Assembly (NCBI GenBank): GCA_032127815.1
Contig: JAQBHK010000411.1
Location: 1 to 39,024 of the forward strand
Length of the DNA stretch: 39,024 nt
Source: Desulfobacterales bacterium
GTDB lineage: Bacteria > Desulfobacterota > Desulfobacteria > Desulfobacterales > UBA11574
Direction of reading: 5' to 3'
The notes under the pieces are model-generated. The model had not been told where the DNA came from. It ran no database searches and saw only the letters and a program-made list of their open reading frames with translations. The first letter of the stretch is position 1. Every line of letters starts with the position of its first letter. Shown here in pieces: positions 4,746-25,210 of this stretch. A program made the translations under genes and the position numbers.

Positions 4746-4773
4746 CCCTGGTAAGCCGGAAAAGAAAAAGATT

Positions 4774-4852
4774 ACCACGAAAACACGAAAGGACGAAAAC
4801 ATGAAAAAGATTATTAAAATTTCGTGTTTTCCTTCTTTCGTGCTTTCGTGAT
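4774..4852. repeat. Imperfect 33-bp inverted repeat (28/33 complementary, 13-nt AT loop) in the parE-parC spacer; arms are tandem 8-mers CACGAAAA/CACGAAAG/GACGAAAA/CATGAAAA
   Basis: Left arm 4774-4806 is accacgaaaacacgaaaggacgaaaacatgaaa. The reverse complement of right arm 4820-4852 is atcacgaaagcacgaaagaaggaaaacacgaaa. Confidence 0.75.
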
Positions 4853-4904
4853 TGCTTTTAATATTTTTGCCGCAAAAAGCGCAAAATTCATAACTAAGGA
4901 ACTA

Positions 4905-7178
4905 ATGACTGAAACAGAGACATTAAGCCTGGAAGAGGTTGAGCATTTGCCCCTGGAGGTCTTTTCGGAGCGGGCCTACCTGGAATATTCCATGTATGTT
5001 ATTTTAGACCGTGCGCTGCCCCATATCGGCGACGGCTTAAAACCGGTGCAGCGGCGTATTGTCTACGCCATGTCGGAACTGGGGTTAAAGGCGGGTTCCA
5101 AGTATAAAAAGTCAGCGCGGACCGTGGGTGACGTGTTGGGTAAATTTCACCCCCACGGCGATTCGGCCTGTTATGAAGCCATGGTCTTAATGGCCCAGCC
5201 GTTTGCCTACCGCTACCCTTTGCTGGATGGACAGGGCAACTGGGGATCTGCTGACGATCCCAAGTCATTTGCGGCCATGCGGTATACCGAATCCCGGCTC
5301 TCTGCTTATGCCGGGGTATTACTGACTGAACTTGGCTTAGGGACCGTAGACTGGCTGCCTAACTTTGACGGCACCCTTAATGAACCTTCCATATTGCCCG
5401 CGCGTCTGCCGAATATCCTGCTAAACGGCACCACCGGTATTGCCGTCGGCATGGCGACCGATATTCCGCCTCACAATTTGGTTGAAGTTGTCAACGCCTG
5501 CGTCGAACTGCTCAATAACCCCAACGCAGACATTGAGGCCCTGTGCGCCCACATCCAGGGACCGGATTTTCCCACCCGCGCGGAAATCATTACTCCGCGC
5601 AGTGAAATCAAAGAGATGTATCGCACGGGCAACGGCAGGCTGAGGATGCGGGCTGTTTTTGAAAGAGAAAACGGGGAAATCGTTATTACAGCGCTGCCAT
5701 ACCAGACGTCCGGCTCCAAGATTATGGAGCAAATTGCCGGACAAATGAACGCAAAAAAACTGCCCATGGTAGTAGACCTTCGCGATGAATCCGATCACGA
5801 AGATCCCACCCGTCTTGTTATCGTGCCGCGCTCCAACCGGATCGATTTCGACGCGCTGATGGCGCATTTGTTTGCCACCACAGATCTTGAACGCACTTTG
5901 CGGGTGAACATGAACGTCATCGGCAGCAACGGCCGTCCCCAAGTCAAGGGGTTGGCGGTTTTACTTCGAGAGTGGCTGGCGTATAGAAAAGATGCGGTCC
6001 GCCGGCGCCTGCAGCATCGACTGGACAAAGTAGAAAACCGGCTGCATTTATTGGAAGGCTTACTCATCGCTTACCTCAATATCGACGAGGTGATCGAAAT
6101 CATCCGCAGCCAGGAGCACCCCAAACCAGTATTGATACAGCGATTTAACCTGTCCGATGAACAGGCTGAGGCCATTCTTGATCTGAAACTGCGCCATCTG
6201 GCCAGATTAGAGGAAATAAAAATCAAGTCCGAGCAGGATGAGCTGGCTCGCGAACGGGATGAGCTGAAAAAAATCTTAGGTTCAAATGCGCGCTTAACAA
6301 CATTGATACGCAAGGAACTGATTGCAGATGCCGAAAAATACGGCGACCAAAGACGCTCTCCCATAGTTGAGCGTGAAGAGGCCCAGGCTCTTTCCCAGTC
6401 GGATATCGTGCCGGTGGAGCCGGTCACCGTAGTTTTGTCCAGCAACGGCTGGGTTCGGACTGCCAAGGGGCATGATGTGGACCCGGCTAATTTGAGTTAT
6501 AAATCAGGCGATCAATTCCAGGCAGCGGCCCTGGGCCGCAGCAACCAGCTTGCGGCTTTTTTGGATTCTACCGGCAGGAGCTATTCGATTCCCGTGCTTG
6601 GCCTGGCGTCGGCCAGAGGTCAGGGCGAACCGTTGAGCGGCCGCTTAAATCCGCCGCCGGATGCAACCTTTGTGACAGTTCTTATGGGAGCGCCTGACCG
6701 GCTGTTGCTGCTGGCAAGTGATGCGGGTTACGGGTTTGTCAGTAAACTGGCTGAGCTGTACACCAAAAACAGAAACGGCAAAGCTTTATTATCCTTGCCT
6801 GCGGGGTCGCGGCCGTTTGTACCGGTACCGATAAATAATATCGATACTGACCTTCTGGTTGCCGTCAGTAATGAAGGCCGGATGCTGGTATTTGCGGTCA
6901 AGCATCTTCCATTGCTGGCGCGGGGAAAAGGCAACAAGATTATCCAGATACCTCCGTCACGCGTGGCTTTAAGGGAAGAATTCGTGGCCGAACTTGCTGT
7001 TTTACCGGCAGAAAGCCATCTTATCATCCATGCCGGGAAACGCCACCTGACACTGAAACCCGGCAATATCGAACAATTCAGGGGTGAACGGGGTCGCCGG
7101 GGACGCAAGCTGCCCAGAGGATTTCGCAACGTGGATCGCCTGGAAGCGGTAAGACCTCAGCAGATGGCATTAATTTGA
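4905..7178 (+). CDS. parC: DNA topoisomerase IV subunit A
   Basis: About 757 aa from ATG 4905. [31 protein letters not shown]; active-site Tyr context [11 protein letters not shown]. Length and the pairing with a short B subunit fit ParC rather than GyrA. Codons 4824-4904 of the tracked ORF are read-through of the hairpin arm. Confidence 0.9.
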
Positions 7179-11482: not shown

Positions 11483-13618
11483 ATGTCTATTGAAAATATC
11501 TTGAACGCTGAATCTGTTGCCATTGTTGGAGCAACAAAGAGTGAAACCAAGAGAGGCTTCCAGGCCATTAAAACGCTTCTGGATGAAAAATTTGAGGGAA
11601 AAATATATCCGGTTAACCCCAAAGAAAAAAGCATATTAGGCCTTAAGTGTTATAAGAAGGTGTCTGATATCGAGGACCCGGTTGACATCGTATTGATTAC
11701 TACTCCCGCCCAGACTATTCCGGCCATTTTGGAAGATTGCGGTAAAAAGGGTGTTCATGGAGCTGTTATTATTGCTGCCGGATTCGGAGAACTCGGAGAT
11801 GAGGGAAGAAAAAAAGAAGAAGAAATGGTGGAAGTGGCAAGAAAAAACAATATCCGGTTAATAGGTCCAAACACATCCGGCATAATAAACATGAAAAACA
11901 ATCTGAATCTTGTAGGTTTGCATGATGTACCCAAAGGGGATATTGCCCTTCTTACCCAGAGCGGCAACATGGCCCTGACATTGATAACAGAAGCGAGTGT
12001 CAAAAGCCGGAAAGGAATTTCATATTACATAGGCGTGGGAAACGAGGCGGACATCAAATTTCACGAATATCTCGAGTTTTTCCAGCAAGACCCTGATACA
12101 AAGGCCATATTAATGTATGTGGAGGGGATGAGAGATGGTCGCAAATTCCTGCAACAGGCGTATAAGACCACTCTCGAAAAACCGATCATCCTTCTCAAAA
12201 GCGGTCGTTCATCCATTGGCAAAAAATCAGCAGGTTCACATACCGGTGCCCTGGCTGGTATGTCGGAAGTGGCTAAGGGAGCCTTTGAACGAGCAGGAAT
12301 TATTGTGATTGAGAATTCGGATGAGCTTTTTCCTGCAGCGGAGACCCTTTCAAGCCTTCCGCCTATTAAAAACAACAATGTTGCCGTTCTTGCCGACGGA
12401 GGAGGCCATGCCACCATTGCTGCTGACCTTTTAACCGATTTAGGGATAAATATCCCTATGTTGAGCGAGAAGACTCAAACCAAATTGAAAAAGATTCTGC
12501 CCTTTACAGCATCAGTGCCAAATCCGGTTGATGTAGCTGGAGGCACAGATTCTAACCCGGCCATTTTTGCCGAATGTGCTGAAATAATCATGAAAGATAC
12601 TAACATAGGCGGGCTTTTAATCGTGGGTCTTTTTGGCGGCTATGGGATACGTTTTGCTAAAAGTCTCGCATTAGTGGAAGAAGATGCGTCCCATATGATG
12701 GGAAAAATGGTGAAAAAATACAATAAACCAATTATTCTCCACAGCCTTTATAGCGCCAAGAAACCCCATTCCCTTGACCTTTTGCGATATTATAACATTC
12801 CAGTTTACGACTCTCTGGATGTGGCATGCAAATGCATTAGCCTGTTGGCAGAGCATGGAGATTATTTGGGCAGGTATCATGCAAAAGCAAAATATATCAT
12901 GAATTGGGGCGCCAAAACAAAGTCCAAAGGAGAGAAAATAATAAACAGAGCCAAAGAAGAGAACCGCAATTTCTTGCTGGAATATGAAGCCAAGAGTCTT
13001 ATACAATTACACGGTGCATCTGTCTCTCATGATTATCTGGCAAAAACAGCAGATGAAGCCGTTAGCATTGCGAAAAACATTGACGGGGAGGTTGTAATGA
13101 AAATTGTATCCCCGGATATTCTTCATAAGAGCGATGCGGGAGGGGTTAAACTCAAACTAAGGACAGAAGACGAAGTTCGTAAAGCCTTTGACGAGATTGT
13201 CGATAACGCAAAAAGATTCGATGAAAAAGCGGACATAAGAGGAATCCTTGTGTCACCCATGGCCAAAGAGGGTGTGGAAGTGATCATAGGGACAAAAATA
13301 GATGACCAATTTGGTCCGATTATTATGTTCGGATTGGGAGGTGTACTGGTGGAAATTTTACGGGATGTTTCTTTCCGGGTGCTTCCCCTATCGCCAGCAG
13401 CTTCCAAGAGGATGTTAAAAGAGATAAAATCCTTTCCCATTCTGGATGGTGTCAGAGGAAAGCCTCCATGTGATAAGAAAGCTCTTACGGAGTTAATGTT
13501 AATCTGTTCTGAAATTGTCGAAGCATATCCTGATATACAGGAGATGGATTTAAATCCCGTTATTGTCTATGAAAGTGGCCTTAATGTTGTAGATGCTCGA
13601 ATTATTCTGAAAGATTAA
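11483..13618 (+). CDS. ADP-forming acyl-CoA synthetase (acetate--CoA ligase ACD family, fused alpha+beta, 711 aa)
   Basis: CoA-binding start VAIVGATKSETKRGFQAIKTLL...KIYPVNPK; phosphohistidine loop GSHTGALAGM; C-terminal ATP-grasp half (EYEAKSLIQLHG...VVMKIVSPDILHKSDAGGVKL). SD AGGAGGGAG. Confidence 0.85.
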   Translation: MSIENILNAESVAIVGATKSETKRGFQAIKTLLDEKFEGKIYPVNPKEKSILGLKCYKKVSDIEDPVDIVLITTPAQTIPAILEDCGKKGVHGAVIIAAGFGELGDEGRKKEEEMVEVARKNNIRLIGPNTSGIINMKNNLNLVGLHDVPKGDIALLTQSGNMALTLITEASVKSRKGISYYIGVGNEADIKFHEYLEFFQQDPDTKAILMYVEGMRDGRKFLQQAYKTTLEKPIILLKSGRSSIGKKSAGSHTGALAGMSEVAKGAFERAGIIVIENSDELFPAAETLSSLPPIKNNNVAVLADGGGHATIAADLLTDLGINIPMLSEKTQTKLKKILPFTASVPNPVDVAGGTDSNPAIFAECAEIIMKDTNIGGLLIVGLFGGYGIRFAKSLALVEEDASHMMGKMVKKYNKPIILHSLYSAKKPHSLDLLRYYNIPVYDSLDVACKCISLLAEHGDYLGRYHAKAKYIMNWGAKTKSKGEKIINRAKEENRNFLLEYEAKSLIQLHGASVSHDYLAKTADEAVSIAKNIDGEVVMKIVSPDILHKSDAGGVKLKLRTEDEVRKAFDEIVDNAKRFDEKADIRGILVSPMAKEGVEVIIGTKIDDQFGPIIMFGLGGVLVEILRDVSFRVLPLSPAASKRMLKEIKSFPILDGVRGKPPCDKKALTELMLICSEIVEAYPDIQEMDLNPVIVYESGLNVVDARIILKD

Positions 13619-13697
13619 AGTTTCATAGATCTTTGACAAAAAATTGGAATATACCCGAAAACGTAAAATCATGAAAATTTTAAATCGACTTTTCATG

Positions 13698-13719
13698 AAA
13701 ACTTTTTGCAAAAAGTTTT
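13698..13719. repeat. Perfect 22-nt palindrome AAAACTTTTTGCAAAAAGTTTT, preceded by a 9-bp inverted repeat TCATGAAAA/TTTTCATGA (13669-13677 / 13690-13698), in the ACD-crotonase spacer
   Basis: Read directly. The reverse complement of 13698-13719 equals itself. Confidence 0.7.
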
Positions 13720-13754
13720 ACCACGAATAATCCCTGAATAAGGAGTTTTAATCT

Positions 13755-14555
13755 ATGGAATATAAGGAAATACTTTTCGAGGAAAAAGGATCTGTTGCTC
13801 ATTTAACACTAAATCGACCCGACATCCGAAATGCCATAACAGGTGAAACAATCATTAATGAAATCGTGGATGTATGCAATAGGGTTCAGAACAAAAATGA
13901 TATTAGTGCCCTGATTGTCACCGGTGCCGGTTCAGCTTTTTCGGCCGGAGGAAACGTTAAGGACATGCATAATAAGGAAGGCATGTTCTCAGGAAATCCG
14001 GAACAGTTACGCGAGAACTACCGCAAAGGAATCCAGCGTATCCCTTTAGCGCTTTATTATCTGGATGTTCCGACTATAGCAGCAGTCAACGGTCCCGCTA
14101 TAGGGGCTGGTTGTGATTTAGCATGCATGTGCGATATACGTATTGCCAGCGAAAAAGCCCGTTTCGGGGAAACCTTTGTTTCTGTTGGTTTAATCCCCGG
14201 CGATGGCGGAGCATTTTTTCTGCCCCGTATCATAGGATTTTCCAGAGCATGTGAGCTTGCATTTACATGCAGGATAATTGATGCGCAGGAAGCCCAGCGG
14301 ATTGGCCTGGTAAGCGAAGTCACCTCACCAGAAAATCTTATTCAGCGTTGCACGGAAATCGCTTTTGAAATCGCAAAACAACCTCAAAACATCCTCCGTC
14401 TGGCAAAACGTCTATTCTATCTTTCACAAGGAAGGAGTTTGGAGGAAGTGCTTGAACTTTCTGCTGCCTATCAGGCCCTCTGCCATCATACCCCTGAGCA
14501 TGACATGGCTGTAGAGAAACTACTTTCCCAGCAGAAGCAGCAAACAAAAAAATGA
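13755..14555 (+). CDS. Enoyl-CoA hydratase/isomerase (crotonase) family protein, second paralogue
   Basis: VAHLTLNRPDIRNAI, GAGSAFSAGGNVKDM, AAVNGPAIGAGCDLACMCDIRIA (Asp where hydratases usually have the first catalytic Glu), FGETFVSVGLIPGDGG. SD AAGGAG. Confidence 0.85.
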   Translation: MEYKEILFEEKGSVAHLTLNRPDIRNAITGETIINEIVDVCNRVQNKNDISALIVTGAGSAFSAGGNVKDMHNKEGMFSGNPEQLRENYRKGIQRIPLALYYLDVPTIAAVNGPAIGAGCDLACMCDIRIASEKARFGETFVSVGLIPGDGGAFFLPRIIGFSRACELAFTCRIIDAQEAQRIGLVSEVTSPENLIQRCTEIAFEIAKQPQNILRLAKRLFYLSQGRSLEEVLELSAAYQALCHHTPEHDMAVEKLLSQQKQQTKK

Positions 14556-15143
14556 TTAATTGTTAGAGAACTTAATAAGTTAAAAGCAAAACTAAACCAG
14601 CGTTTGGTTTTAAAAAAATTTACAAAGAGGTTGTTAATGTGGAAGTAGAAAATAAAATATTGGTTGTTAAAGAATTGCCTGATGGGTCTCCAGTCAGAAT
14701 ACCTTATTTTATAGAAGGAAGGACATATTCGAAAATTAATCAAGAAATAGATTGTCGTTTCGGAAAATGCGGCTATTTTATATTTTTACGATGACCGCCA
14801 GCCTGTTGATATCTTGCCAAACGTCCAGATATCTAATGATTCCACGCTAATGTGATACTATTAACGTATTTGGATCTCAGTTTGAGCCTTTTTATGAAAT
14901 CCTGCTGTCCCCCCGACCCTGTATATTCATCTAACTTACTGGAAATAAACTTTATAACATTAATACAACTCAAAAAAGATCAAGAATTATTCGGTCTGGC
15001 ATGAATGTTGGATTATACCAATGCAAAACCTGGCCTTTGGTTTCATCCTGTCGCTTAATTTCAACTACTTTTCCAAGCATGCCTGTCACGCCGCAATCAG
15101 ATTTTTTATTTACACATAATTACTTTTTGGCTATTGTGTAGAT

Positions 15144-15809
15144 ATGAAAACTCAATCGATTCCAACTCGTGGCAGAACCTTGGACCATGCTGCCTTTATT
15201 TATGATTTTGTGGAGCCGATCCTGATGCTCGGCAAGCAGAACGAGTATGACCGCCATATTGTTTCATTGCTTGAACTGACTCCGGCCGACAGGGTCCTTG
15301 ATTTAGGCTGCGGTACCGGAGTTTTAACCCGGATGATCGCTGATCAACTGGATGCTGAAGCCGGAGGGGTTTCGCTGGGCATTGACGCCGCGGCCAAGAT
15401 GATTAAGGTTGCCAGAAAAAAACGCGAAAACGAAGCCTGTTGCTTTGAGGTGGCGGCCGCCGAAGATCTGCCCTTTGAAAACGCATCTTTTGATGCGGTT
15501 GTGTCAAGCCTTTTTTTCCACCATGTTCCCCTTGATTTGAAAGAAAAATCTCTCTTGGAAGCCTTCCGAGTTCTGCGTCCTCAAGGCCGGCTGGTTATTG
15601 CTGACATGCACACCCCCACTACTTGGATGGGGGCGCTGGTATCGCATGTTTCGCGCTGGTTTTTTATGCAACCGCAGATCGGAGAAAATATTAGGGGTGT
15701 TCTGCCGGCGCTGATCGAGAAAGCAGGTTTTAATCCACCCAAGAATGTTTGCACCTATTTCGGATATATAGCCATTTTCATCAGTCAGAAGCTTAACCTG
15801 CTAAAATAA
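15144..15809 (+). CDS. Class I SAM-dependent methyltransferase (Methyltransf_11/UbiE-like, 221 aa)
   Basis: Motif I VLDLGCGTGVLTRMIA; LPFENASFDAVVSSLFFHHV; LRPQGRLVIAD. Confidence 0.85.
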   Translation: MKTQSIPTRGRTLDHAAFIYDFVEPILMLGKQNEYDRHIVSLLELTPADRVLDLGCGTGVLTRMIADQLDAEAGGVSLGIDAAAKMIKVARKKRENEACCFEVAAAEDLPFENASFDAVVSSLFFHHVPLDLKEKSLLEAFRVLRPQGRLVIADMHTPTTWMGALVSHVSRWFFMQPQIGENIRGVLPALIEKAGFNPPKNVCTYFGYIAIFISQKLNLLK

Positions 15810-16861
15810 TGGACATTGTTGAAAAAACAGAAAACATTCAACGGCCAGCCAAAGATTTAACGGCAACGGGTCCGCTGGCTATGCTGCAGGAAGAATTGTC
15901 TTCCGGTCTCCGGTTATACTGGACAAAAGCCGCTGCCATTCTTAAGGGGAGCGGCATCAGCCTGCTCGATCCTGCGGATGATTTTTTCTCCCTGGATAAA
16001 AATTTTTTTTCGGCGCTGTTTCTTTATTCTTACCATCGAGCAGGTATCGCCAAGCAGCGGCGAATAGTATATGCCGCCATCAACCAGTGCTTACGCGGCC
16101 TGGTGACAGGATGTGACAATATCCTGGACGATGAATACAAAAAAACCCTTGAAACCGATTTGCCCGTGCAAGGGACCCGCTTTCGCTCGGTGCTCGATAT
16201 CATGGTTTCTGATCGCGTTCTTTTTGAAATCCTTTTAAATGGCTTTCAGGATAATGAATATAACAGCCAGGATGTTTTGGCTGCCAGTGTTGCCTCACTG
16301 CATGCGCTGACACAAAGCGGTGCTCAGGAAGCTGCGGAAGAGGGCGGCATTCATAAAATACTCCAACCGGAGCAGATTCTTCAATCCATACACCATTATA
16401 AAACCGGGTTGCTTTTTCAATGCCCGTGGGCCGTACCTTTGATTATAGAAAATTCTCGGAAAGAGACCGTTTCGTTTTTACTGGAAGCGTTGTACCAAAT
16501 CGGAATGGGATGCCAGATAATGGATGATATGGTTGATCTGGCATCGGACCTGCGCCAAAAGCGCCACAATTATGTGGCTTCCATTCTCTATCATGATGCA
16601 AATCATAATGAGTGGAACCGCTTGAAGTCTTTAATGGCATCGAATCCGCAAACCACAAAAGATAAGAACCTGCTGTTAGAGCTGCCATATGCCAAATCCG
16701 TAGCGGTGAAGGCGGCCAGGGCCTTTCTTTATGAAGGACTCAGCGCTCTTTTTGGCGCTACCCATCAATCTTTTGTTGAACCTTCTATGGCGTTTCTTTC
16801 GAAAAGAATCGGCGCAGAACAGATGATGTCTGATATCGAGATATGTCATTTGGATATTTAA
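15809..16861 (+). CDS. Polyprenyl-synthase-like (class I isoprenoid synthase fold) protein with degenerate first Asp-rich motif
   Basis: HHYKTGLLFQ...(42 aa)...GMGCQIMDDMVDLASD parallels the IspA region HKTGALI...GLAFQVQDDILD (second Asp-rich motif). The position of the first motif reads CDNILDDEYKK, without the DDxxD...RRG continuation. The start overlaps the methyltransferase stop (TAATG). Confidence 0.65.
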   Translation: MDIVEKTENIQRPAKDLTATGPLAMLQEELSSGLRLYWTKAAAILKGSGISLLDPADDFFSLDKNFFSALFLYSYHRAGIAKQRRIVYAAINQCLRGLVTGCDNILDDEYKKTLETDLPVQGTRFRSVLDIMVSDRVLFEILLNGFQDNEYNSQDVLAASVASLHALTQSGAQEAAEEGGIHKILQPEQILQSIHHYKTGLLFQCPWAVPLIIENSRKETVSFLLEALYQIGMGCQIMDDMVDLASDLRQKRHNYVASILYHDANHNEWNRLKSLMASNPQTTKDKNLLLELPYAKSVAVKAARAFLYEGLSALFGATHQSFVEPSMAFLSKRIGAEQMMSDIEICHLDI

Positions 16862-18015
16862 AATTTTGGATTAAAACTGCCTACCTGTTTCTTTCGCGGT
16901 CAGCGCGCTCTACCGCGGTCCTTGCGTTAATGGTGGTCATCGCCGTTGCGGTCCTGATCTTTCTATCTGCTTTAGCAATCGGCGTAAACGACGCCATGAT
17001 CCAAAATTCCATCGGCCTTTATTCAGGTCATATATCAGGCGACCTTCTGCCACAGCCCCTTAATCCGGAGAGCCTGAAAATAGACGGCGTCGCCGGTGTT
17101 CTCAAACGCAGCCTGATACCGGGCACCCTTTCAAATGGAGATTATATTGAGACCATTGCTATGGTTGCTGTCGATCCGGTTGCCGAGCAAAAGCATGCTG
17201 CCATTTGGAAAAAAACCATTCAGGGCAGATATATCCAAAATTACGAGCATTCGATATTTTTAAGCTCCACCTTAGCGAAACAATTAGACGTTCAAACAGG
17301 AAGTATCCTTTACTTTAGTCCGGCCATTAGCAAAAAACCGGTTAAGTTAATGGTATCAGGGATCTATAAGACCGCAATAGACTATCTCGATCGAGGAATT
17401 GCTTTTTGCCCCTTTGAGATTCTACCGGTAAAAACAGCAACGTGGCGGGCGGCCATTTTTTTAGAGCAAGGGATTGATCCGGAGCAGATCATTAGCAGGT
17501 ATCGTCAATTACTACCGCAATCGCTCGAGTTTAAGTCGTGGCAGGAAATGATGCCGGACCTGCTGCAGTTAATTGATTTGAATTATGTCTCCATGGGCAT
17601 CGTTATGGTTTTGGTGTTTGGCGTAGTTTCAATTGGTATTGCCTGTGCCTTTGTCATCTTTATCTTTAAAAACTTGCGTGAATACGGCATTATGAAAGCC
17701 ATGGGTGTAACCCCCCTGGAAATAGCATACCTGATATTTATCGAAGTGATCATGATGAACCTTGCCGCCTCTATTGTCGGCATTCTTGGAGGTTGTTTAG
17801 CGGTTTTGATTACGGGCCACACCGGAATAGATCTTGCTTATTTTACATCACATAATCGTTATTTTGTTGTGTCGGGGGTTATCATTCCCAGACTGACATT
17901 TTATTCCTTATGTCTACCGCCGATGCTCGCTTTCTTTTTCAGCATGGTGTCTGCTATATGGCCGGCGTGGTTAATAGCCGGAAAAAAAGCAGCGGATATT
18001 TTAAGAAGTGTTTGA
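16843..18015 (+). CDS. ABC transporter permease, FtsX/MacB/LolE type (4 TM with a large extracytoplasmic domain)
   Basis: N-terminal TM (AVLALMVVIAVAVLIFLSALAIG), a soluble stretch of about 220 aa, then three C-terminal TMs with the FtsX-type signature region LREYGIMKAMGVTPLEI. Overlaps the previous gene by 19 nt. Confidence 0.8.
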   Translation: MSFGYLKFWIKTAYLFLSRSARSTAVLALMVVIAVAVLIFLSALAIGVNDAMIQNSIGLYSGHISGDLLPQPLNPESLKIDGVAGVLKRSLIPGTLSNGDYIETIAMVAVDPVAEQKHAAIWKKTIQGRYIQNYEHSIFLSSTLAKQLDVQTGSILYFSPAISKKPVKLMVSGIYKTAIDYLDRGIAFCPFEILPVKTATWRAAIFLEQGIDPEQIISRYRQLLPQSLEFKSWQEMMPDLLQLIDLNYVSMGIVMVLVFGVVSIGIACAFVIFIFKNLREYGIMKAMGVTPLEIAYLIFIEVIMMNLAASIVGILGGCLAVLITGHTGIDLAYFTSHNRYFVVSGVIIPRLTFYSLCLPPMLAFFFSMVSAIWPAWLIAGKKAADILRSV

Positions 18016-18694
18016 CAACATGATACAGCTCGAAGGGATTTCAAAGGAATATCGATCGGGAAGAGGCCGGGTTTTGGCCCTGTCCGACGTAACCTTCACC
18101 TTTGAAAAGAATAGCAAGGTGGCGGTATTCGGAAAATCGGGTTCAGGCAAGACCACGCTGCTCAATTGCATCGGGGGACTCGAACGGCCGGAGAGTGGAA
18201 TGGTAACATGTTTTGGTGTTGACATTCATTCGCTATCCGAAAAAGCGCTTTGTCTTTTTCAACGCAAGAACCTGGGGTTCGTTTTTCAACACGGCAACCT
18301 TTTTAGCTACTTGACGATTTTTGAGAACATCGCCTTTCCCTTGGAACTGAATGGCTTTGAGAGAAAGGCTGTGTTAAAGCGAGTCAGTGAACTGCTTGAA
18401 AACATCGGTCTTGCCGACGCTGGGGCGGCACTTCCATATGAACTTTCCGGCGGAGAGGTTCAACGGGTTTCTGTGGCCCGGGCCATAGCCCATTCGCCCC
18501 GGGTGCTTCTGGCGGATGAACCTACCGCAAGCCTGGATTCGGACACAGGCAGAGATCTTGTCCGGCTTATGTTCAGTATGGGGCGCGATCAGGGATGTAC
18601 CATGATTATTGCTACACACGACACGGATATCATTAAGCTGGCGGATGCCCGACTGCCCATCCAGGACGGCAAAATTGAAACGGAGGATAAATGA
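18008..18694 (+). CDS. ABC transporter ATP-binding protein (LolD/MacB-type)
   Basis: Walker A GKSGSGKTTLLN, Q-loop FVFQH, signature LSGGEVQRVSVARA, Walker B VLLADEPT, H-loop ATHD. Overlaps the permease gene by 8 nt. Confidence 0.9.
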   Translation: MFDNMIQLEGISKEYRSGRGRVLALSDVTFTFEKNSKVAVFGKSGSGKTTLLNCIGGLERPESGMVTCFGVDIHSLSEKALCLFQRKNLGFVFQHGNLFSYLTIFENIAFPLELNGFERKAVLKRVSELLENIGLADAGAALPYELSGGEVQRVSVARAIAHSPRVLLADEPTASLDSDTGRDLVRLMFSMGRDQGCTMIIATHDTDIIKLADARLPIQDGKIETEDK

Positions 18695-18999
18695 AGTCGT
18701 TTTTAAAAATGACCGTTTTATTTGTTTTACTTTTTATCATTTTCGGATGCACCTATCGTTATTATCTTGGTTTTCACGGGCCTTCGATACAATTGTATCC
18801 CGAAGACCATGAAGGCGTAACCGAAGATGAAGAATGCCTTGAATGCCATGATCCTGAAAATGATCCGGAATGTACGCCAACTTCTCACCCGCACTTTACC
18901 GGATGCCTGAAATGTCACAATGATGAAGTAAATACAGTGAAATTAAGAAAGACGCCCGTTGCGGATTTTCGACGAGCGTATCATTCTTTCCGATTTTAG
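18691..18999 (+). CDS. Small (102 aa) putative lipoprotein dihaem cytochrome c
   Basis: Signal peptide MKSFLKMTVLFVLLFIIFGC with a lipobox-like IFGC (Cys20). Two CXXCH motifs, CLECH (49-53) and CLKCH (72-76). ATGA overlap with the ATPase stop. Confidence 0.6.
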   Translation: MKSFLKMTVLFVLLFIIFGCTYRYYLGFHGPSIQLYPEDHEGVTEDEECLECHDPENDPECTPTSHPHFTGCLKCHNDEVNTVKLRKTPVADFRRAYHSFRF

Positions 19000-19148
19000 A
19001 TGTGTGCTGTAAGGGCAGAGGGGGCATAAATACTGTAACACTGCCAATATCATATTGAATGGCTTTTCAAATGCAGAATTTGTTGATATTTTTAAAAAAA
19101 AGACATAATAAATTCCAGATCAAAAACCAACTAATCCAACAAAGGCTT

Positions 19149-20561
19149 ATGAAGCATCGGGTAGTTCAACTTGTCAGTTTGATCGGCATTCTGCTTTTGG
19201 CTGCATCCTGTGCGCCGTTTAAACCTCTATCCAGGCCGTCGCCGGCCGGGGAGTTGCCGGGGGAATTTTCTCTTTATACGGGCCAGTCCGAGCCGCTCCA
19301 GCGGTGGTGGGAAGAATTTGACGACCCGGAACTCAATGCCCTGATCGCAGCGGCCCTGTCAGACAACCTGACCCTGAAGGAAGCCTGGTCGCGACTCAAC
19401 CAAGCCCGGGCCCTGGCCGTTCAGTCCGGCGCAGCACTTTATCCGGACCTGTCCGGTACCGCCGGGGCTTCTTATGCGCGTCAACGGACTGCTAACGGCA
19501 TCCGGCAATCCGTATCGAGCGAAGACTATTCTCTGGGGGTCATAAGCAGCTACGAACTGGATTTGTGGGGACGTATCCGGTCCGGGCAGGAATCGGCCCT
19601 GCTGGATGTAAGCGCCGCCCGTGAAGATTTAAATACGGCCGCGATGACCCTGGCGGCTGAGGTTACCCGGCGCTGGATAAACATTATTGCCCAGCGGATG
19701 CAAAAACAGCTTCTGGAGCATCAGCTTCAAACCAACCGGACATACCTGGAACTGATTGAACTGAGGTTTCGAAAATCGATGGTGTCGGCACTGGATGTTT
19801 ATCAGCAAAAACAAGTTGTTGAAGATGTCATGGCTGAAATCCCGCTGATCGAAGCCGAAGAACAGCTCTTGCGACATGAACTGGCACTTTTGCTGGGAAA
19901 ACCGCCGCAGTTTTTTGTAAAGATCAGCCGGACCGGCTTGCCGGAACCGGTTCAAATCCAGGCAACCGGGCTGCCGGCCGACCTTCTTGCGGCCCGTCCG
20001 GATTTGCGGGCGGCCGGGATGCGCCTGCGGGCGGCGGACTGGCAGGTGGCGGCTGCGCGTGCGAACCGCCTGCCGGCGATCAGCCTGACAGGACGGGCCC
20101 ACTATGGCGCGGGGAATGTGGATGTACTCTTCGATAATTGGCTGCTCAGCCTGGCGGGCAATCTGACCGCACCGATATTCGACGGAAAACGGCGGGCAGC
20201 CGAAGTCGACCGCCGGCTGGCGATCACGGATGAAAACCTGTCCGCATACCGGCAAGCGGTTTTAACGGCTATCAAAGAAGTCGAAGACGCACTCGTCAGC
20301 GAGGCGAAGCAGCGGGAGTACATTAAGCGGCTTGAAACTTTAACGGCAACTGCGCGTAAGGCTTTTGAAGAGGCCGGCAATCGCTATCGTAACGGGCTTA
20401 CCGATTACCTGCCGGTGCTGACCCAGCTGTTAAAAGTTCAGGGTCTTGAAAGGAATTTAATTAAGCAGCAGGCAAACCTGATAGGGATTCGCATCAGCCT
20501 CCATCGCGCCCTGGGCGGAACCTGGACCGAATCGCTGACCTCTTTGACGATTGACGATTGA
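19149..20561 (+). CDS. RND efflux outer-membrane lipoprotein, NodT/OprM family
   Basis: From ATG 19149: MKHRVVQLVSLIGILLLAASCAPF (lipobox LAASC), WWEEFDDPELNALI, two OEP repeats, YRNGLTDYLPVL...LHRALGGGW-type C-terminus. Confidence 0.85.
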   Translation: MKHRVVQLVSLIGILLLAASCAPFKPLSRPSPAGELPGEFSLYTGQSEPLQRWWEEFDDPELNALIAAALSDNLTLKEAWSRLNQARALAVQSGAALYPDLSGTAGASYARQRTANGIRQSVSSEDYSLGVISSYELDLWGRIRSGQESALLDVSAAREDLNTAAMTLAAEVTRRWINIIAQRMQKQLLEHQLQTNRTYLELIELRFRKSMVSALDVYQQKQVVEDVMAEIPLIEAEEQLLRHELALLLGKPPQFFVKISRTGLPEPVQIQATGLPADLLAARPDLRAAGMRLRAADWQVAAARANRLPAISLTGRAHYGAGNVDVLFDNWLLSLAGNLTAPIFDGKRRAAEVDRRLAITDENLSAYRQAVLTAIKEVEDALVSEAKQREYIKRLETLTATARKAFEEAGNRYRNGLTDYLPVLTQLLKVQGLERNLIKQQANLIGIRISLHRALGGTWTESLTSLTIDD

Positions 20562-20585
20562 CGATTGTCTATTGATGATTGATGG
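20544..20585. repeat. Tandem heptamer array, six units (TTGACGA x3, TTGTCTA, TTGATGA, TTGATGG), spanning the stop codon of the OMP gene
   Basis: Read directly. Stop TGA at 20559-20561 lies inside unit 3. Confidence 0.75.
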
Positions 20586-20608
20586 TTTCGTAATAAGTCA
20601 AAATCTCA

Positions 20609-20684
20609 CGCAAAGCCGCAAAGGGCGCAAAGTTAACTTGTTAATATTAAATGTTGTTTTCTTGGCGTCCTTAGCGTCTTTGCG
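20609..20684. repeat. Imperfect 24-bp inverted repeat (20/24, 28-nt AT-rich loop); arms are tandem 8-mers (C)CGCAAAG
   Basis: Left arm 20609-20632 is cgcaaagccgcaaagggcgcaaag. The reverse complement of right arm 20661-20684 is cgcaaagacgctaaggacgccaag. Confidence 0.75.
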
Positions 20685-20761
20685 AGAAAATATAGTTTTT
20701 ACGAGTTCGCCATGATTGAATATAATTTTTGTTCAAGAACCAGTATCACACAGGTACAAAA

Positions 20762-21988
20762 ATGACGGATAATAAACAGAATAATATGTTTTTCGAAAAA
20801 CAGCCGAGCCCGGTTAAAACGCCGCGCCCCATCGTCAGGATTGTGCTGTCATTGATCATACTCGCTGTTGGTGCCGGTACGGCATTTTACCTGAAAAACA
20901 GTGCGCCCCGAACCCGGAAACAGCCGCTGGCCCGGTTGAGTCCGACGGTTCAGGTCGAACCGGTAACGCTTGCCGACTATCAGATCGTTGTAACGGCCAT
21001 GGGGACCGTTATTCCTGCCCGCGAAGTGGTGCTAAAATCCCGTGTGTCCGGAGAAGTTGTCGAAATTCATCCCGAATTTACGGAAGGCGGGTTATTAAAA
21101 AAAGACACGAAAATACTCCGGATCGACCCGCTGGACTTCAAGCTGGCGCTGGCGCGCAAGCAGAGCGCGGTGACCGCTGCCGAATCCGCCCTGAAACTGG
21201 AGCTGGGCCATCAGGACGTGGCCAAGCGCGAATGGGAACTGTTAAAAGGAGCCGAGCCGGTGCAGGATCTGGAGAAGGAACTGGCGCTGCGCAAACCCCA
21301 TCTGGACAAAGCCAGAGCAGATCTGGCGGCGGCCGAAGCCGACTTTAAGACAGCAGCGCTCAATCTTGACCGAACCCTTATCCTGGCGCCGTTCAATGCC
21401 ATGGTTCGCACAAAAGCGGTGGACCTCGGATCCCAGGTAGCACCACAGGAGCCGCTGGCCGAACTGGTGGGAACCGATGCTTACAGGGTTAGGGTGTCCA
21501 TACCGGTCGATCGCCCTGAATGGATTAACATTCCCGGCCTGGCCGGCGATGCGGGCTCCAAAGCCCGCATTATTTACAGCCAGGGTCATGCATGCAGCGG
21601 GACGGTTGTCCGGCTGTTGGGAGATCTGGCAACCGAAGGGCGCATGGCCCGTATCCTGGTGGAGGTTCCGGACCCGCTCGGTTTGACTGCTTCCAACCAG
21701 GGGCGCGTACCGCTTTTAATCGGCGAGTACGTGCGGGTAGAAATCCAAGGGCGTAAACTAAAGAGCGTGTTTCAAATTCCGCGGCCGGCTTTCAGGGACA
21801 ATTCAAGCGTCTGGATTGCCGGCGAAAACCAGATATTGGAAATTCGGAAGGTGCGTCCGCTCTGGCGTGATGCCGGCTTCGTCCTGCTGCAAGACGGACT
21901 GAAACCCGGTGAACGGCTGATCGTCTCGGATTTGGCGGCACCGGTGCAAGGAATGGCGTTGCTTGTCGGTGGTTCGCCAGGTTCATGA
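20762..21988 (+). CDS. RND efflux membrane fusion (periplasmic adaptor, HlyD family) protein
   Basis: N-terminal TM (IVRIVLSLIILAVGAGTAFYL), a coiled-coil segment (ALKLELGHQDVAKREWELL...DKARADLAAAEADFKTAALNLDRT), and beta-barrel/MP-domain-like regions. ATG 20762 is preferred to TTG 20729. Confidence 0.85.
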   Translation: MTDNKQNNMFFEKQPSPVKTPRPIVRIVLSLIILAVGAGTAFYLKNSAPRTRKQPLARLSPTVQVEPVTLADYQIVVTAMGTVIPAREVVLKSRVSGEVVEIHPEFTEGGLLKKDTKILRIDPLDFKLALARKQSAVTAAESALKLELGHQDVAKREWELLKGAEPVQDLEKELALRKPHLDKARADLAAAEADFKTAALNLDRTLILAPFNAMVRTKAVDLGSQVAPQEPLAELVGTDAYRVRVSIPVDRPEWINIPGLAGDAGSKARIIYSQGHACSGTVVRLLGDLATEGRMARILVEVPDPLGLTASNQGRVPLLIGEYVRVEIQGRKLKSVFQIPRPAFRDNSSVWIAGENQILEIRKVRPLWRDAGFVLLQDGLKPGERLIVSDLAAPVQGMALLVGGSPGS

Positions 21989-22069
21989 AATTTTTTCATC
22001 GACAACTAAAATGTAAATAAATCCAAATACATTGGATGAAAACCACTAAATTGGATATGCGTACGTGAT

Positions 22070-25000
22070 ATGAGCAGTCTTTCGCAAAACGATTCCGAAA
22101 GGAAAGGGGCCATTGTCTGGATGGCCGGGCATTCCGTGACGGCCAACCTGGTCATGCTGGTGCTCCTGTTGGGCGGATTATATATGGGCATCCGGATCAA
22201 AAAGGAGGTTTTTCCTTATTTTGAGCTGGATCTGGTCCAAATCACCGTGCCCTACCCCGGTGCCAGCCCCCAGGAAGTGGAAAGAGGCATCATTTTGGCC
22301 ATAGAAGAAGCCGTCCAGGGGCTGGAAGGGGTCAATGAAGTTCGGGCATCTGCCAGGGAAGGGGTCGGAACGGTTACCGTGGAGATGATCGAAGGCGAAA
22401 ATCTGCAAAAGCTGGCCCAGGATATCCAGAGCGAGGTGGACCGGATTACATCGTTTCCCGACGAAGCCGAAGAGCCGCAAGTGGTGATCGTTTCGCGAAA
22501 ACGTTATGTCGTTTCGCTGGCTCTTTACGGCGACCAGAGCGAGGGGGTTTTGCGTGAATATGCAGAATACCTGCGGGATCGCCTGCTGCAGCAACCGGGC
22601 ATCACCCAGGTGGAGCTGACCGGGGTGCGCAACTATGAGATCAGCGTCGAAATCCCCCAGGACACACTTAGAACCCATAACCTTACGCTTGAGGAAGTTG
22701 CCCAGCGCATCGGCCGGACGTCTATGGAGCTTCCCGGAGGCGCCGTCAAGGCCTTGGGGGGCGATATCCTGGTGCGAGTCAAAGAGCGCAGGGATTACGG
22801 TCATGAATTCGGAAAGATTCCGATTATTACGACCAACGACGGCACCCAGGTTCTGCTTGAAGATATTGCCGATATTAAGGACGGGTTTGAAGAAACCGAC
22901 AATGCCGCTACATATAACGGCAAACCGACCGTGATGATCGAAGTCTTCCGGGTCGGTGATCAAACTCCTGTTTCGGTATCCAATGCCGCTAAACAGGTCG
23001 TCGCTGAAGTCAATCAGGAATTGCCCCCCGGCCTGGCGGTTGTTCTTCGTAACGATCGCTCGGATATTTATCGGCAGCGCATGGGCCTTCTGATCAAAAA
23101 CGGATTTATGGGACTGGGGCTGGTGTTTATTTTGCTGGCATTATTTCTGGAAATCCGGCTCGCATTCTGGGTCGCTCTGGGGATTCCCATCTCTTTTCTG
23201 GGTTCCCTTTTAGTGTTACCGGCCATGGACGTCAGCATTAACATGGTATCCATGTTTGCGTTTATCGTGACTTTAGGTATCGTGGTGGACGATGCCATCG
23301 TGGTCGGGGAAAACGTATATTATCACCGCCAGCGCGGTGTTCCCTGGTTGGAAGCCGCTATCTCAGGGACCCGGGAAATCGCCATGCCGGTTATTTTCAG
23401 CGTACTGACCAACATGGTGGCTTTTTTGCCCTTGTTCTTCGTTCCCGGCATTCTGGGAAAGGTTTTCAGACAAATTCCGGTGGTCGTGATCATCGTGTTC
23501 GCCATTTCGCTGATCGAATGTTTTTTTATTCTTCCGGCCCACGTGGGCCACCAGAAACCGCCGCACAAAGGATTTTTCGGCTGGATATACGCCCGGCAGC
23601 AGCGATTCAGCGACGCCTTTGTCCGTCTGGTTATACATCGATACGGTCCCTTGCTGGGGTTGGCCCTGCGCTGGCGATATGTGACATTGTCCGCGGGCAT
23701 TGCTATTTTAATGATTACGGTCGGCTATGCGAAGAGCGGGCGCATGGGATTCGAGCTTTTTCCAAAGATCGAATCCGATTATGCCCTGGTGACGGCCACG
23801 CTGCCGTTTGGAACCGCTTTTCAAAAAACCGAAAAAGTGCAAAAGATTCTGGTCCGGGCGGCCCAGGAGGTTGTCGCTGAAAACGGCGGAACAACACTCA
23901 TGGAAGGAATTTTTGCCAATATCAATGACAACAAGGCCGAGGTTCGCATCTACCTGACACCGCCGGACAAGCGCCCGATTTCAACGGCCAATCTAACCGA
24001 ACGCTGGCGGGAACGGGTCGGGGTTATTCCGGGATTGGAAGCGCTTTTATTCGAATCCGATGCCGGCGGACCCGGCCGCGGCGCCGCCATTACCATAGAA
24101 CTCAGCCACAAAGATATCGATCTGCTGGAAAAGGCTGCGGCCGGCGTGGCAGAGGCTATGAGATTTTACCCGGAACTCAAAGATATCGATGACGGTTTTG
24201 CGCCGGGCAAACAGCAGATCGATTTCCAGGTCAAGCCTGAAGCCCGCAGTCTCGGATTACGTTCCCGGGAGGTGGCCAGACAGGTCCGGCATGCTTACTA
24301 TGGCGCCGAGGCGTTGCGGCAACAGCGGGGGCGCAATGAAATCAAAGTCATGGTGAGGCTCCCCAAAGACGAACGGGGTTCCGAGTTTAATCTTGAAGAA
24401 ATGATATTGCGGACCCCGGCCGGCAAAGAGATTCCCTTGCGCGCGGCCGTTACCGTAAACCGGGGGCGGGCCTACACCGATATCAATCGCCGCGCCGGGC
24501 GCCGGATCGTGTCGGTGGAAGCCGACGTTCAGCCCCGCAGCAAGGCCGGCCAGGTGCTGGAGTCGCTTAAATCCGAAGCCTTGCCGGCCTTGCAGAAGAA
24601 ATATACCGGTTTGCGCTACAGTTTTGAAGGTCGCCAGGCCGACCAACGCGAAAGCATGCAGAGCCTGATGCGAGGGCTATTGGCGGCGCTGGTGGTTATT
24701 TTTGCCATGCTGGCGGTTCCGTTGAACAGTTATATCCAGCCCATGATCATTATGGCGGCGATTCCCTTCGGCATTGTGGGCGCCGTGCTCGGGCATCTGA
24801 TCATGGGCTACAGCCTGAGCGTGCTCAGCATGTTCGGCGTGGTGGCGCTGTGCGGGGTGGTGGTCAACGATTCACTGGTGTTGATCGATTTTGCCAATCG
24901 TAAAGAAAAGGCCGGAATGAGCCGGCGCGACGCCGTTCACCAGGCCGGCATCCATCGTTTTCGGCCGATTATTTTAACCACTCTGACCACTTTCGGCGGC

Positions 25001-25210
25001 CTGTCGCCGATGATCTTTGAGACCTCCCGCCAGGCCCGGTTTTTGATTCCCATGGCCCTTTCCTTAGGGTACGGCATCCTGTTTGCAACCTTGATTACGT
25101 TGGTTCTGGTGCCGTCTCTTTACCTTATTATCGACGATATTTCTCAATTGATGCGAACCAATCCTGTACCTGATATTCATGATTTAAACTTGGAAAAATC
25201 TGAGAAATAG
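22070..25210 (+). CDS. RND family efflux transporter permease (AcrB/CzcA superfamily, 1046 aa)
   Basis: 12-TM RND layout with two large periplasmic loops. VMLVLLLGGL start, GIVVDDAIVVGENV, VVALCGVVVNDSLVLIDF. Confidence 0.9.
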   Translation: MSSLSQNDSERKGAIVWMAGHSVTANLVMLVLLLGGLYMGIRIKKEVFPYFELDLVQITVPYPGASPQEVERGIILAIEEAVQGLEGVNEVRASAREGVGTVTVEMIEGENLQKLAQDIQSEVDRITSFPDEAEEPQVVIVSRKRYVVSLALYGDQSEGVLREYAEYLRDRLLQQPGITQVELTGVRNYEISVEIPQDTLRTHNLTLEEVAQRIGRTSMELPGGAVKALGGDILVRVKERRDYGHEFGKIPIITTNDGTQVLLEDIADIKDGFEETDNAATYNGKPTVMIEVFRVGDQTPVSVSNAAKQVVAEVNQELPPGLAVVLRNDRSDIYRQRMGLLIKNGFMGLGLVFILLALFLEIRLAFWVALGIPISFLGSLLVLPAMDVSINMVSMFAFIVTLGIVVDDAIVVGENVYYHRQRGVPWLEAAISGTREIAMPVIFSVLTNMVAFLPLFFVPGILGKVFRQIPVVVIIVFAISLIECFFILPAHVGHQKPPHKGFFGWIYARQQRFSDAFVRLVIHRYGPLLGLALRWRYVTLSAGIAILMITVGYAKSGRMGFELFPKIESDYALVTATLPFGTAFQKTEKVQKILVRAAQEVVAENGGTTLMEGIFANINDNKAEVRIYLTPPDKRPISTANLTERWRERVGVIPGLEALLFESDAGGPGRGAAITIELSHKDIDLLEKAAAGVAEAMRFYPELKDIDDGFAPGKQQIDFQVKPEARSLGLRSREVARQVRHAYYGAEALRQQRGRNEIKVMVRLPKDERGSEFNLEEMILRTPAGKEIPLRAAVTVNRGRAYTDINRRAGRRIVSVEADVQPRSKAGQVLESLKSEALPALQKKYTGLRYSFEGRQADQRESMQSLMRGLLAALVVIFAMLAVPLNSYIQPMIIMAAIPFGIVGAVLGHLIMGYSLSVLSMFGVVALCGVVVNDSLVLIDFANRKEKAGMSRRDAVHQAGIHRFRPIILTTLTTFGGLSPMIFETSRQARFLIPMALSLGYGILFATLITLVLVPSLYLIIDDISQLMRTNPVPDIHDLNLEKSEK

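Follow-up and report, generated by a model that had tools for sequence, protein, structure and literature searches.

A cassette of five tightly packed genes lies at positions 15144-18999 of contig JAQBHK010000411.1 of a Desulfobacterales bacterium (assembly GCA_032127815.1), of which the whole stretch of 39,024 nt, hereafter the window, was analysed. The cassette encodes an S-adenosylmethionine (SAM) methyltransferase (MT), a protein resembling polyprenyl synthases (PPS-like protein), an FtsX-family permease, an ATP-binding cassette (ABC) ATPase and a small dihaem c-type cytochrome lipoprotein (Table 1). It was found that the same gene order recurs in diverged relatives, and these five genes, without the resistance-nodulation-division (RND) efflux genes that follow them in the window, very probably function as one conserved module. 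All of their products are members of known superfamilies; the combination of an isoprenyl diphosphate synthase (IDS)-fold enzyme and MT with a type VII ABC system and a cytochrome is undescribed.

In a collection of 5.8 billion proteins the PPS-like protein had 924 relatives, the best name among them being 'polyprenyl synthetase family protein', and in a scan with one genome per species the family was present in 173 genomes. The carriers were nearly all metagenome-assembled genomes (MAGs) of Desulfobacterota (Desulfobacterales, Desulfatiglandales, Desulfobulbaceae, Adiutricales and Smithella), and the cultured carrier was Desulforhopalus sp. IMCC35007. Three diverged family members on long contigs (53-58% identity) showed the identical five-gene order within wholly different flanks. 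Among 83 loci, about 65 of which were assessable, the order of the window was found in 50 and in 2 more that were truncated at the 5' end, and another 13 had the ABC pair without a cytochrome gene. The rest were mostly too short to judge, with a few reduced forms (L027, L044 and L056). The median gaps at the four successive junctions, taken across 52-73 homologous loci, were -4, -4, +3 and -4 nt. No sixth conserved gene was observed: the most recurrent flanking gene, that of a PAS histidine kinase on the upstream side, occurred in 9 of 82 loci. In a preliminary description of this DNA the five genes had been proposed to be a single operon-like unit, and a synteny search had been named beforehand as the test that could refute it; the search bore the proposal out, since the same order was found across relatives. 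The description had also held that the combination was not a described system. This agreed with our searches, in which no describing paper, NCBIfam equivalog or non-generic Pfam family was found for the cassette, for its PPS-like family or for its cytochrome.

The linkage of the members was reinforced by several variant loci. In a Smithella MAG (L076, 4920-5222) the cytochrome gene was the first of the operon. The MT, PPS-like and cytochrome genes were retained in L056 (3515-5543) and L081 (5227-7482), in which the ABC pair was deleted or a remnant. In L034 (5313-5927) a PEMT-family membrane methyltransferase took the place of the class I MT, and in L082 (8824-9339, labelled Geobacter sp. UBA4074) a PEMT/ICMT-family gene followed the ATPase gene, at the usual position of the cytochrome. 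The genes of these last two loci hint at a lipid substrate bearing a carboxylate or phosphate group.

Within the window, all five open reading frames and the junction strings agreed with the coordinates given before, and the gene labels (methyltransferase, polyprenyl_synt-like, FtsX permease, ABC ATPase and lipoprotein with two CXXCH motifs) held in domain scans. The MT and PPS-like genes share TAATG at 15807-15811 (-1 nt), the PPS-like and permease genes a 19-nt overlap, ATGTCATTTGGATATTTAA, at 16843-16861, the permease and ATPase genes GTGTTTGA at 18008-18015 (-8 nt), and the ATPase and cytochrome genes ATGA at 18691-18694 (-4 nt). An alternative ATPase start, ATG 18020 (224 aa), lies 4 nt past the permease stop and changes the third junction to +4 nt. 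It fits the median of +3 nt at that junction in homologous loci and may be the start used rather than GTG 18008. The four successive junctions were thus each +4 nt or less. Two other same-strand pairs in the window overlap and most are 14-811 nt apart, and four consecutive tight junctions are therefore not the local norm. It had been argued that the overlaps imply a fixed stoichiometry; they support co-translation and co-expression only.

Table 1. Members of the cassette and the region preceding it, with positions in the window
Feature	Position	Strand	Description
Methyltransferase (MT) gene	15144..15809	+	SAM-dependent, class I, Coq5/UbiE-like, 221 aa, cytoplasmic
PPS-like gene	15809..16861	+	atypical trans-prenyl-synthase-like class I isoprenoid-fold enzyme, 350 aa, cytoplasmic
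Permease gene	16843..18015	+	FtsX-family (type VII ABC; LolC/LolE/LolF/MacB-like), 390 aa
ABC ATPase gene	18008..18694	+	LolD/FtsE/DevA/MacB/YbbA type, 228 aa from GTG 18008
Mini dihaem c-type cytochrome lipoprotein gene	18691..18999	+	102-aa precursor
Upstream intergenic region	14556..15143	+	588 nt, AT-rich; presumed promoter/regulatory region

The gap before the MT gene was the largest same-strand gap in that part of the window. Close to the cassette it holds a single sigma-70-like match, TTTACA-17-TATTGT at 15109-15137, found in a consensus-match scan that gave 15 matches where 10.7 were expected. Only 6 nt separate this match from the first ATG, and the mRNA would be nearly leaderless if it were used. 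A clear Shine-Dalgarno sequence (GGAGG) was present only before the cytochrome gene, with none before genes 1-4. No Rfam family was detected anywhere in the window. For the Desulforhopalus relative, contigs of one marine metatranscriptome spanned the junctions of the MT with the PPS-like gene and of the PPS-like with the permease gene, which is weak evidence for co-transcription. No RNA runs containing the window itself were found.

The prenyl-synthase-like protein and the methyltransferase

The PPS-like protein has in common with the trans-IDS enzymes (PF00348: IspA/FPPS, GGPPS, IspB/OPPS and HepT) an all-alpha fold, a KT(G) motif and a GxxxQxxDDxxD motif. It differs from them in its low identity (12-18%, TM-score ∼0.5), in its D-N-x-x-D-D-E motif, in lacking RRG and GGKRxR, and in being paired with a methyltransferase. 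The Pfam model polyprenyl_synt, of 251 positions, scored 32.4 bits (gathering score, GA, 27) and covered residues 188-250 only, and the NCBIfam synthase models scored 13-26 bits against cutoffs of 275-560 (FPPsyn 25.7/275, GGPPS 17-18/460-500, HepT 13/456). An AlphaFold2 (AF2) model built with 20 homologues was all-helical (pLDDT 82.7, pTM 0.85). Its Foldseek matches in the PDB were all IDS or IDS-like proteins, with 4jyx, 1wy0, 1rqi, 3wjk and 3mzv at the top and Ord1 included, at a best E of 2.5e-4 and TM-scores of 0.45-0.56. Profile alignment to solved synthases was limited to the KTG and second Asp-rich helices (E ∼1e-4).

In the window protein the first Asp-rich motif (FARM) reads D103-N104-I-L-D107-D108-E109, followed by Y-K-K-T-L-E-T-D, and its DNxxDDE pattern was invariant. 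The second (SARM), G232-M-G-C-Q236-I-M-D239-D240-M-V-D243, aligned together with K198-T199-G200 with GGPPS and FPPS. The residues D103-N104-x-x-D107, E109-Y-K111, K198-T-G200, G232-x-G-C-Q236-x-x-D239-D240-x-x-D243, D247 and H253-N254 were invariant in the family, as were D108, E174/E177/E178 and H195. Relatives at only 19-34% identity still kept D103, N104, D107, E109, E174, E177, E178, G180, H195, G200, G232, Q236, D239, D240, D243, D247 and N254. When an IspA sequence was used in hhalign, as a ruler only, E115/T116 fell on the RR of IspA, and the N-terminal 110 residues were not alignable to it. RRG was found nowhere in the window protein. A GGKRxR-like string was likewise absent from it, and was found in 0 of 20 members of set A3 and 1 of 20 of set A2. 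The NSE/DTE motif of terpene cyclases was absent in all 40 family sequences inspected, for which reason a cyclase was rejected; of 20 superfamily members searched with Pfam, two weakly matched Terpene_synth_C and one SQS_PSY. The 150 best representatives, none of them longer than 432 aa, included no fusion of MT and PPS-like protein.

A search of 1.84 billion cluster representatives with the family profile returned 344 clusters at E ≤ 0.001. Because canonical synthases are very numerous, so small a number implied that they were not retrieved. Within the class I isoprenoid fold, the PPS-like protein represents a distinct branch that is conserved and sharply bounded. An ordinary octaprenyl or heptaprenyl synthase accompanied by MenG was rejected on the low NCBIfam scores, the absence of GGKRxR and RRG, and this separation of the family, in line with the preliminary description. 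The same description had called the protein degenerate, a word that does not fit: the active site is remodelled, and it stays invariant even at 19-34% identity. A non-catalytic subunit like HepS or the small subunit of geranyl diphosphate (GPP) synthase is unlikely for the same reason. In canonical synthases GGKRxR and RRG bind isopentenyl diphosphate (IPP) and diphosphate. From these known roles and the missing motifs, the PPS-like protein has probably lost the IPP site and retained the binding of Mg2+ and a prenyl diphosphate.

The MT was the best-conserved member of the cassette, with 57-86% identity across loci compared with 47-69% for the PPS-like protein. It contains an LDLGCGTG motif and matched the Pfam families Methyltransf_11/25/31 and Ubie_methyltran (65 bits, GA 20.1). 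Among curated families UbiE/MenG/MpqE/RquA were closest, and NCBIfam scores stayed below cutoff (CpaM 98.7/180; UbiE/MenG TIGR01934 85.8/158); 'UbiE' is its name in automated annotation only. The AF2 model (pLDDT 74.9) was most similar to yeast Coq5 (TM-score 0.72), followed by a bacterial phosphatidylethanolamine (PE) N-methyltransferase, TleD, GPP C-methyltransferase, MitM and RebM. In its modelled structure the MT was thus closest to Coq5/UbiE and other lipid or prenyl methyltransferases. This modelled likeness supports a lipophilic small molecule as the substrate, with a lean to a quinone-type ring.

The two enzymes also occur together in a distant branch. A metagenome scan with one subgroup, about 30% identical to the window PPS-like protein, gave 80 loci (L084-L163; examples are L100:5857-8350 and L097:4652-5521). 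In nearly all loci that were long enough, the PPS-like gene was followed by a homologous MT gene (150-200 bits), in reversed order relative to the window, and the best NCBIfam match of this MT was again UbiE/MenG (101/158, below cutoff). These loci had no cytochrome gene, and an FtsX/ABC pair was present only in L132. Other partners were found in their place. A secreted protein of ∼210 aa was encoded 6 nt downstream in 32 of about 50 assessable loci; it matched no Pfam or NCBIfam family and no protein of the window, and had by eye only a Cache/PDC-like look. An NAD(P)H-binding protein of the NmrA/QOR2 type was present in 28 loci, a divergent OmpR-type regulator with a HAMP histidine kinase upstream in about 20 of 50, and an ArnT/PMT-family glycosyltransferase in 6. 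Several MT residues outside the SAM site were common to both branches (T8, G10, T12, Y20, D21, P25, FFHH 124-127, D154 and Q176..E181-N-I-x-G185), from which it can be argued that both MTs act on one substrate. Because the two genes are still adjacent in a branch that lacks the ABC and cytochrome genes, the comparison of loci indicates that the PPS-like/MT pair is the ancient, obligate core of the cassette.

The ABC pair and the dihaem cytochrome

The hydropathy of the permease suggested a first transmembrane (TM) segment at residues 26-44, a periplasmic domain of ∼200 aa and TM2-4 at ∼256-379. It matched Pfam FtsX (36.1 bits, GA 25.5) and, below GA, MacB_PCD (19 bits). Its closest NCBIfam models were LolC (49/473) and lolCE (47.9/362), both far below cutoff, and its sequence matches in the PDB were LolC, LolE and LolF only, consistent with the MacB/LolE type assigned in the preliminary description. 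The ATPase scored 111 bits with ABC_tran and ∼192 bits with the FtsE, LolD and DevA models of NCBIfam, below the equivalog cutoffs (LolD 192/308), and its motifs were intact (Walker A GKSGSGKT, LSGGE, Walker B VLLADE and H-loop THD). By these sequence features the pair is assigned to the type VII (mechanotransmitting) ABC systems. Since there is only one permease gene, the permease is presumably a homodimer.

The arrangement of a 4-TM FtsX-type permease with a separate ATPase and an extracytoplasmic partner is that of LolCDE/LolDF, MacAB-TolC, FtsEX-EnvC and YbbAP-TesA. The cassette differs from these systems in having a dihaem lipoprotein cytochrome of 60 aa as the partner, in its coupling to two cytoplasmic enzymes, and in scores that do not reach the equivalog cutoffs for Lol, MacB, FtsE and YbbA. 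No MacA-, LolA- or EnvC-like partner is encoded in the cassette. The pattern of MacAB-TolC was not observed either, as no gene for a membrane fusion protein (MFP) or outer-membrane factor (OMF) recurred in the cassette neighbourhood of other loci. In the literature searched there was no precedent for a cytochrome as partner in the type VII ABC superfamily.

The window cytochrome has a signal peptide, a lipobox with Cys20 and CXXCH motifs at residues 49-53 and 72-76. Among 54 cassette-linked copies, all had the signal peptide and the [GAS]-Cys pair and 49 had both CXXCH motifs, the others looking frameshifted; the median mature length was 62 aa. Haem attachment and lipidation are predicted from these motifs. 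H29, H40 and H66 were invariant in a four-sequence alignment and are candidate distal ligands, and the mature N-terminus, C-A-Y-R-x-Y-L-G-x-H-G-P-S, was strikingly conserved. In its ∼30 aa per haem, two CXXCH motifs and probable bis-His ligation the protein resembles dihaem NapB, cytochromes c7/c3 and NrfH/NapC, but it is distinguished from these small multihaem cytochromes by its lipoprotein anchor, its mature length of ∼62 aa and its occurrence only inside the cassette. There were weak matches to Pfam Paired_CXXCH_1 (18 bits) and to TmcA, NrfH and NapB, and no solved structure was significantly related (best E 0.019). A C-terminal tail of 22 aa, NTVKLRKTPVADFRRAYHSFRF (18934-18999), is absent in most family members; as several clusters of ∼102-aa proteins at 71-84% identity have it, the tail was regarded as a feature of a clade and not as a read-through artefact.

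The cytochrome family comprised 324 members, nearly all annotated as 'hypothetical'. When members on long contigs were picked independently of the PPS-like gene, 3 of 3 lay at the end of a cassette. Together with its retention in L056 and L081, which lack a complete ABC pair, and its move to the front in L076, this genomic pattern points to a cytochrome dedicated to the cassette. Its place as fifth member of the operon held in part: it was frequent (∼80% of loci), but the 13 loci without it show that it is dispensable. These cytochrome-less cassettes were scattered over the PPS tree, which means either repeated loss of the gene or its location at another site. In one of them, L016 (8871-9620), the ATPase gene is directly followed by one for a protein of 249 aa whose signal peptide is lipoprotein-like (LSGC); this protein matched no Pfam family and may be an alternative periplasmic partner. 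In L081 a 113-aa monohaem CXXCH protein is encoded upstream, at 4705-5046.

What the cassette may do

Tentatively, we propose a composite mechanism, in which a methylated prenyl lipid, possibly quinone-like, is made by the two enzymes and extracted by the ABC pair for the anchored cytochrome. Neither the MT nor the PPS-like protein has a TM segment or a signal peptide. Because the PPS-like enzyme has kept the acidic motifs and lost those that bind IPP, it would not elongate; it would ionise a prenyl diphosphate and either transfer the prenyl group to some non-IPP acceptor or convert it in another way. The MT would methylate the same substrate or the product, and the resulting hydrophobic molecule, methylated, prenyl-bearing and perhaps quinone-like, would partition into the inner membrane. 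In the Desulfobacterota branch the type VII ABC system would then lift this lipid from the outer leaflet at the expense of ATP and present it to the anchored cytochrome of ∼60 aa, with which electrons would be exchanged. What we infer is the class of the substrate, the direction in which it is transported and the redox interaction of cytochrome and lipid. The preliminary idea, in which a quinone-like lipid or methylated isoprenoid would be carried to the periplasm, is plausible. The redox part is supported indirectly, by the likeness of the MT to quinone C-methyltransferases and by a redox partner in each branch, the dihaem cytochrome in one and the NAD(P)H-binding NmrA/QOR2-type protein in the other.

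Several observations weigh against this mechanism. The FARM is remodelled, with the second Asp replaced by Asn and the arginines by E115/T116, and the region was modelled with low confidence (pLDDT 53-67), so that ionisation of the diphosphate is not assured. The fold search with the MT was non-discriminating, with Coq5, TleD, GPP-MT, PE N-MT, MitM and RebM all at E ∼1e-12, and the MT was below cutoff in all curated MT families. No gene for the biosynthesis of an aromatic or quinone head group is present in the cassette. The 13 loci without a cytochrome gene imply that the cytochrome is not essential to the core function, and a dihaem domain of 60 aa has no obvious lipid-binding pocket. Catalytic activity, like the substrate and the product, is a prediction. 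The expression data come from a single metatranscriptome with possible carry-over of DNA, which did not extend over the ATPase and cytochrome genes. A complete electron-transfer device, in which a dedicated methylated prenyl redox lipid is made by a new branch of IDS-fold enzymes, lifted by the ABC pair and handed to the lipid-anchored mini cytochrome, is rather unlikely. If true, it would let electrons pass from the quinone pool to the periplasm or outward by a route separate from those of the Qrc, Tmc, Hmc and NrfH-type complexes, and a cytochrome would for the first time be the periplasmic partner of a type VII ABC system.

LolCDE releases lipoproteins from the inner membrane, and the ABC pair might do the same for the co-encoded dihaem lipoprotein, sending it to the outer membrane or cell surface, with the enzymes serving an accessory or unrelated lipid function, such as supplying a lipid that is required where the lipoprotein ends up. 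That LolC, LolE and LolF are the only solved relatives of the permease, and LolC/LolCE its best NCBIfam matches, would fit this role, as would the conserved lipobox and mature N-terminus, a possible recognition element, and the usual 4-nt overlap of the cytochrome and ATPase genes. Nevertheless, we consider dedicated lipoprotein release unlikely: 13 loci have the ABC pair and no cytochrome gene, in L056 and L081 the cytochrome gene persists although the ABC pair is missing or reduced to a remnant, the Lol scores reach only 48-49 bits against equivalog cutoffs of 362-473, and the constant coupling of the pair to two enzymes is left unexplained.

It was also considered that the cassette is an inducible module for envelope-lipid modification or resistance, in which the enzyme pair, controlled by a two-component system, alters a polyprenyl-phosphate carrier or other envelope lipid and the ABC system, like Bce- or MacB-type resistance transporters, shields or removes lipid intermediates of the envelope. 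The regulator and kinase genes of the distant branch suggest inducibility of this kind, as does the upstream presence, among the Desulfobacterota loci, of a PAS histidine kinase (9 loci) or a response regulator (5 loci). ArnT/PMT-family glycosyltransferases use polyprenyl-phosphate-linked donors, so that their genes in 6 distant loci would fit too, and so would the PEMT/ICMT-family membrane methyltransferases of L034 and L082. In most Desulfobacterota loci, however, the window included, there is no adjacent two-component system; the permease is of the 4-TM Lol/MacB type and not the 10-TM BceB type; the Desulfobacterota cassette has no glycosyltransferase or phosphatase; and a dedicated cytochrome has no explanation. 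Such a module is thus rather unlikely.

The adjacency of the MT and a class I isoprenoid-fold gene is reminiscent of GPP-MT/2-methylisoborneol synthase, SodC/SodD, Lon23/Lon22 and hepS-menH-hepT, in which an adjacent MT and isoprenoid-fold enzyme work on one prenyl substrate. By the logic of 2-methylisoborneol, sodorifen or longestin, the MT would C-methylate a prenyl diphosphate, the PPS-like enzyme would convert or condense this non-canonical substrate to a metabolite that is secreted or volatile, and the ABC system would export it or protect against it. GPP C-methyltransferase and TleD were among the structural matches of the MT, and the weak Terpene_synth_C and SQS_PSY matches in the superfamily point the same way. 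But none of the 40 family members inspected has NSE/DTE, the fold matched IDS and not cyclases, and the cassette MT is smaller (221 aa) than those of such pairs and nearest to Coq5. The partners of the enzyme pair are a type VII ABC system and a cytochrome or, in the other branch, secreted and NAD(P)H-binding proteins, and to our knowledge none of the known pairs is accompanied in this way; the methylated terpenoid leaves the cytochrome and NAD(P)H-binding partners unexplained. High conservation over ∼170 species is atypical for secondary-metabolite clusters. Type VII ABC systems work from the periplasmic side and do not export cytoplasmic products (PMC12646458). A methylated terpenoid is accordingly improbable.

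Prenylation of a protein or peptide in the manner of ComQ, possibly of the cytochrome precursor, followed by methylation by the MT and export, would recall the CaaX logic of prenylation and then carboxyl-methylation. The cassette does encode a small, highly conserved protein, and ICMT/PEMT-family methyltransferases are present in two variant loci. The IDS fold is put to non-elongating use in ComQ, StheQ and Ord1, as may be the case in the PPS-like protein, with Ord1 among its Foldseek matches. ComQ and StheQ prenylate the Trp of a peptide and Ord1 an indole, acceptors other than IPP, and comQ adjoins the gene of its small substrate and a two-component system (bioRxiv 10.64898/2026.08.29.745113; PMC12510300). 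In these enzymes the FARM is intact and the pseudo-SARM (NDxxx) binds no metal (bioRxiv 10.64898/2026.08.29.745113). The PPS-like family is reversed, with an altered FARM and an intact SARM, and its partner is a methyltransferase; because of this opposite pattern it was placed outside the ComQ/StheQ/Ord1 group. Neither a gene for a Trp-containing peptide nor an indole acceptor pathway recurred in the cassette neighbourhoods. In addition, the cytochrome would be Sec-exported and matured in the periplasm, whereas the enzymes are cytoplasmic, and it is missing in 13 loci and in the whole distant branch. ComQ-like prenylation is very improbable. Housekeeping quinone biosynthesis by a normal prenyl diphosphate synthase and MenG/UbiE beside a transporter, which the automated annotations and the above-threshold polyprenyl_synt score would suggest, is close to refuted by the confinement of that match to residues 188-250, the low HepT, FPPsyn and MenG/UbiE scores, the lack of GGKRxR and RRG, the failure of the family profile to find canonical synthases and the conserved linkage to ABC and cytochrome genes.

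Desulfobacterota are dominant in the anaerobic cycling of carbon and sulfur in marine sediments, and the movement of electrons across their cell envelope is only partly understood. The cassette is widespread in this environmentally important phylum (at least 173 species), highly conserved and experimentally tractable. A PPS-like family coupled to a Coq5/UbiE-like MT implies an unknown prenyl-derived metabolite, and even with a non-redox lipid as product, the enzyme pair would be a clean target for enzyme discovery. The cytochrome would be a new kind of partner for type VII ABC systems, to which YbbAP-TesA has lately added the extraction of lipid for a partner enzyme. It is also among the smallest dihaem c-type cytochromes and is attractive for biophysics.

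Flanking genes

In the preliminary description, the OMF, MFP and RND genes directly downstream (19000-25210) had been suggested as the outer-membrane exit for the product. No terminator was predicted between the cytochrome and OMF genes, terminator-like sites being at chance level in the window. In about 85 other loci, homologues of the OMF, MFP, RND and enoyl-CoA hydratase genes of the window were not found within 7-8 kb of the cassette, the sole exception being one unrelated MFP far upstream in L069. In addition, the G+C content was 0.44-0.47 across the cassette and rose to 0.52-0.59 in the OMF-MFP-RND operon, with the step at ∼19000; over the whole window it ranged from 0.37 to 0.60. The step may reflect a mosaic origin, horizontal acquisition of one block or an assembly chimera. 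Because the linkage is unique to the window and coincides with this step, the efflux genes were regarded as a chance neighbour, and both their membership of the cassette and the proposed exit were rejected.

On the same strand, the region upstream of the cassette (11483-14555) encodes a protein of 711 aa together with a crotonase/enoyl-CoA hydratase, which scored above cutoff with NCBIfam PRK09245 (371 bits). Both genes were unlinked to the cassette in other loci. The 711-aa protein resembles, by eye only, an ADP-forming acyl-CoA synthetase.

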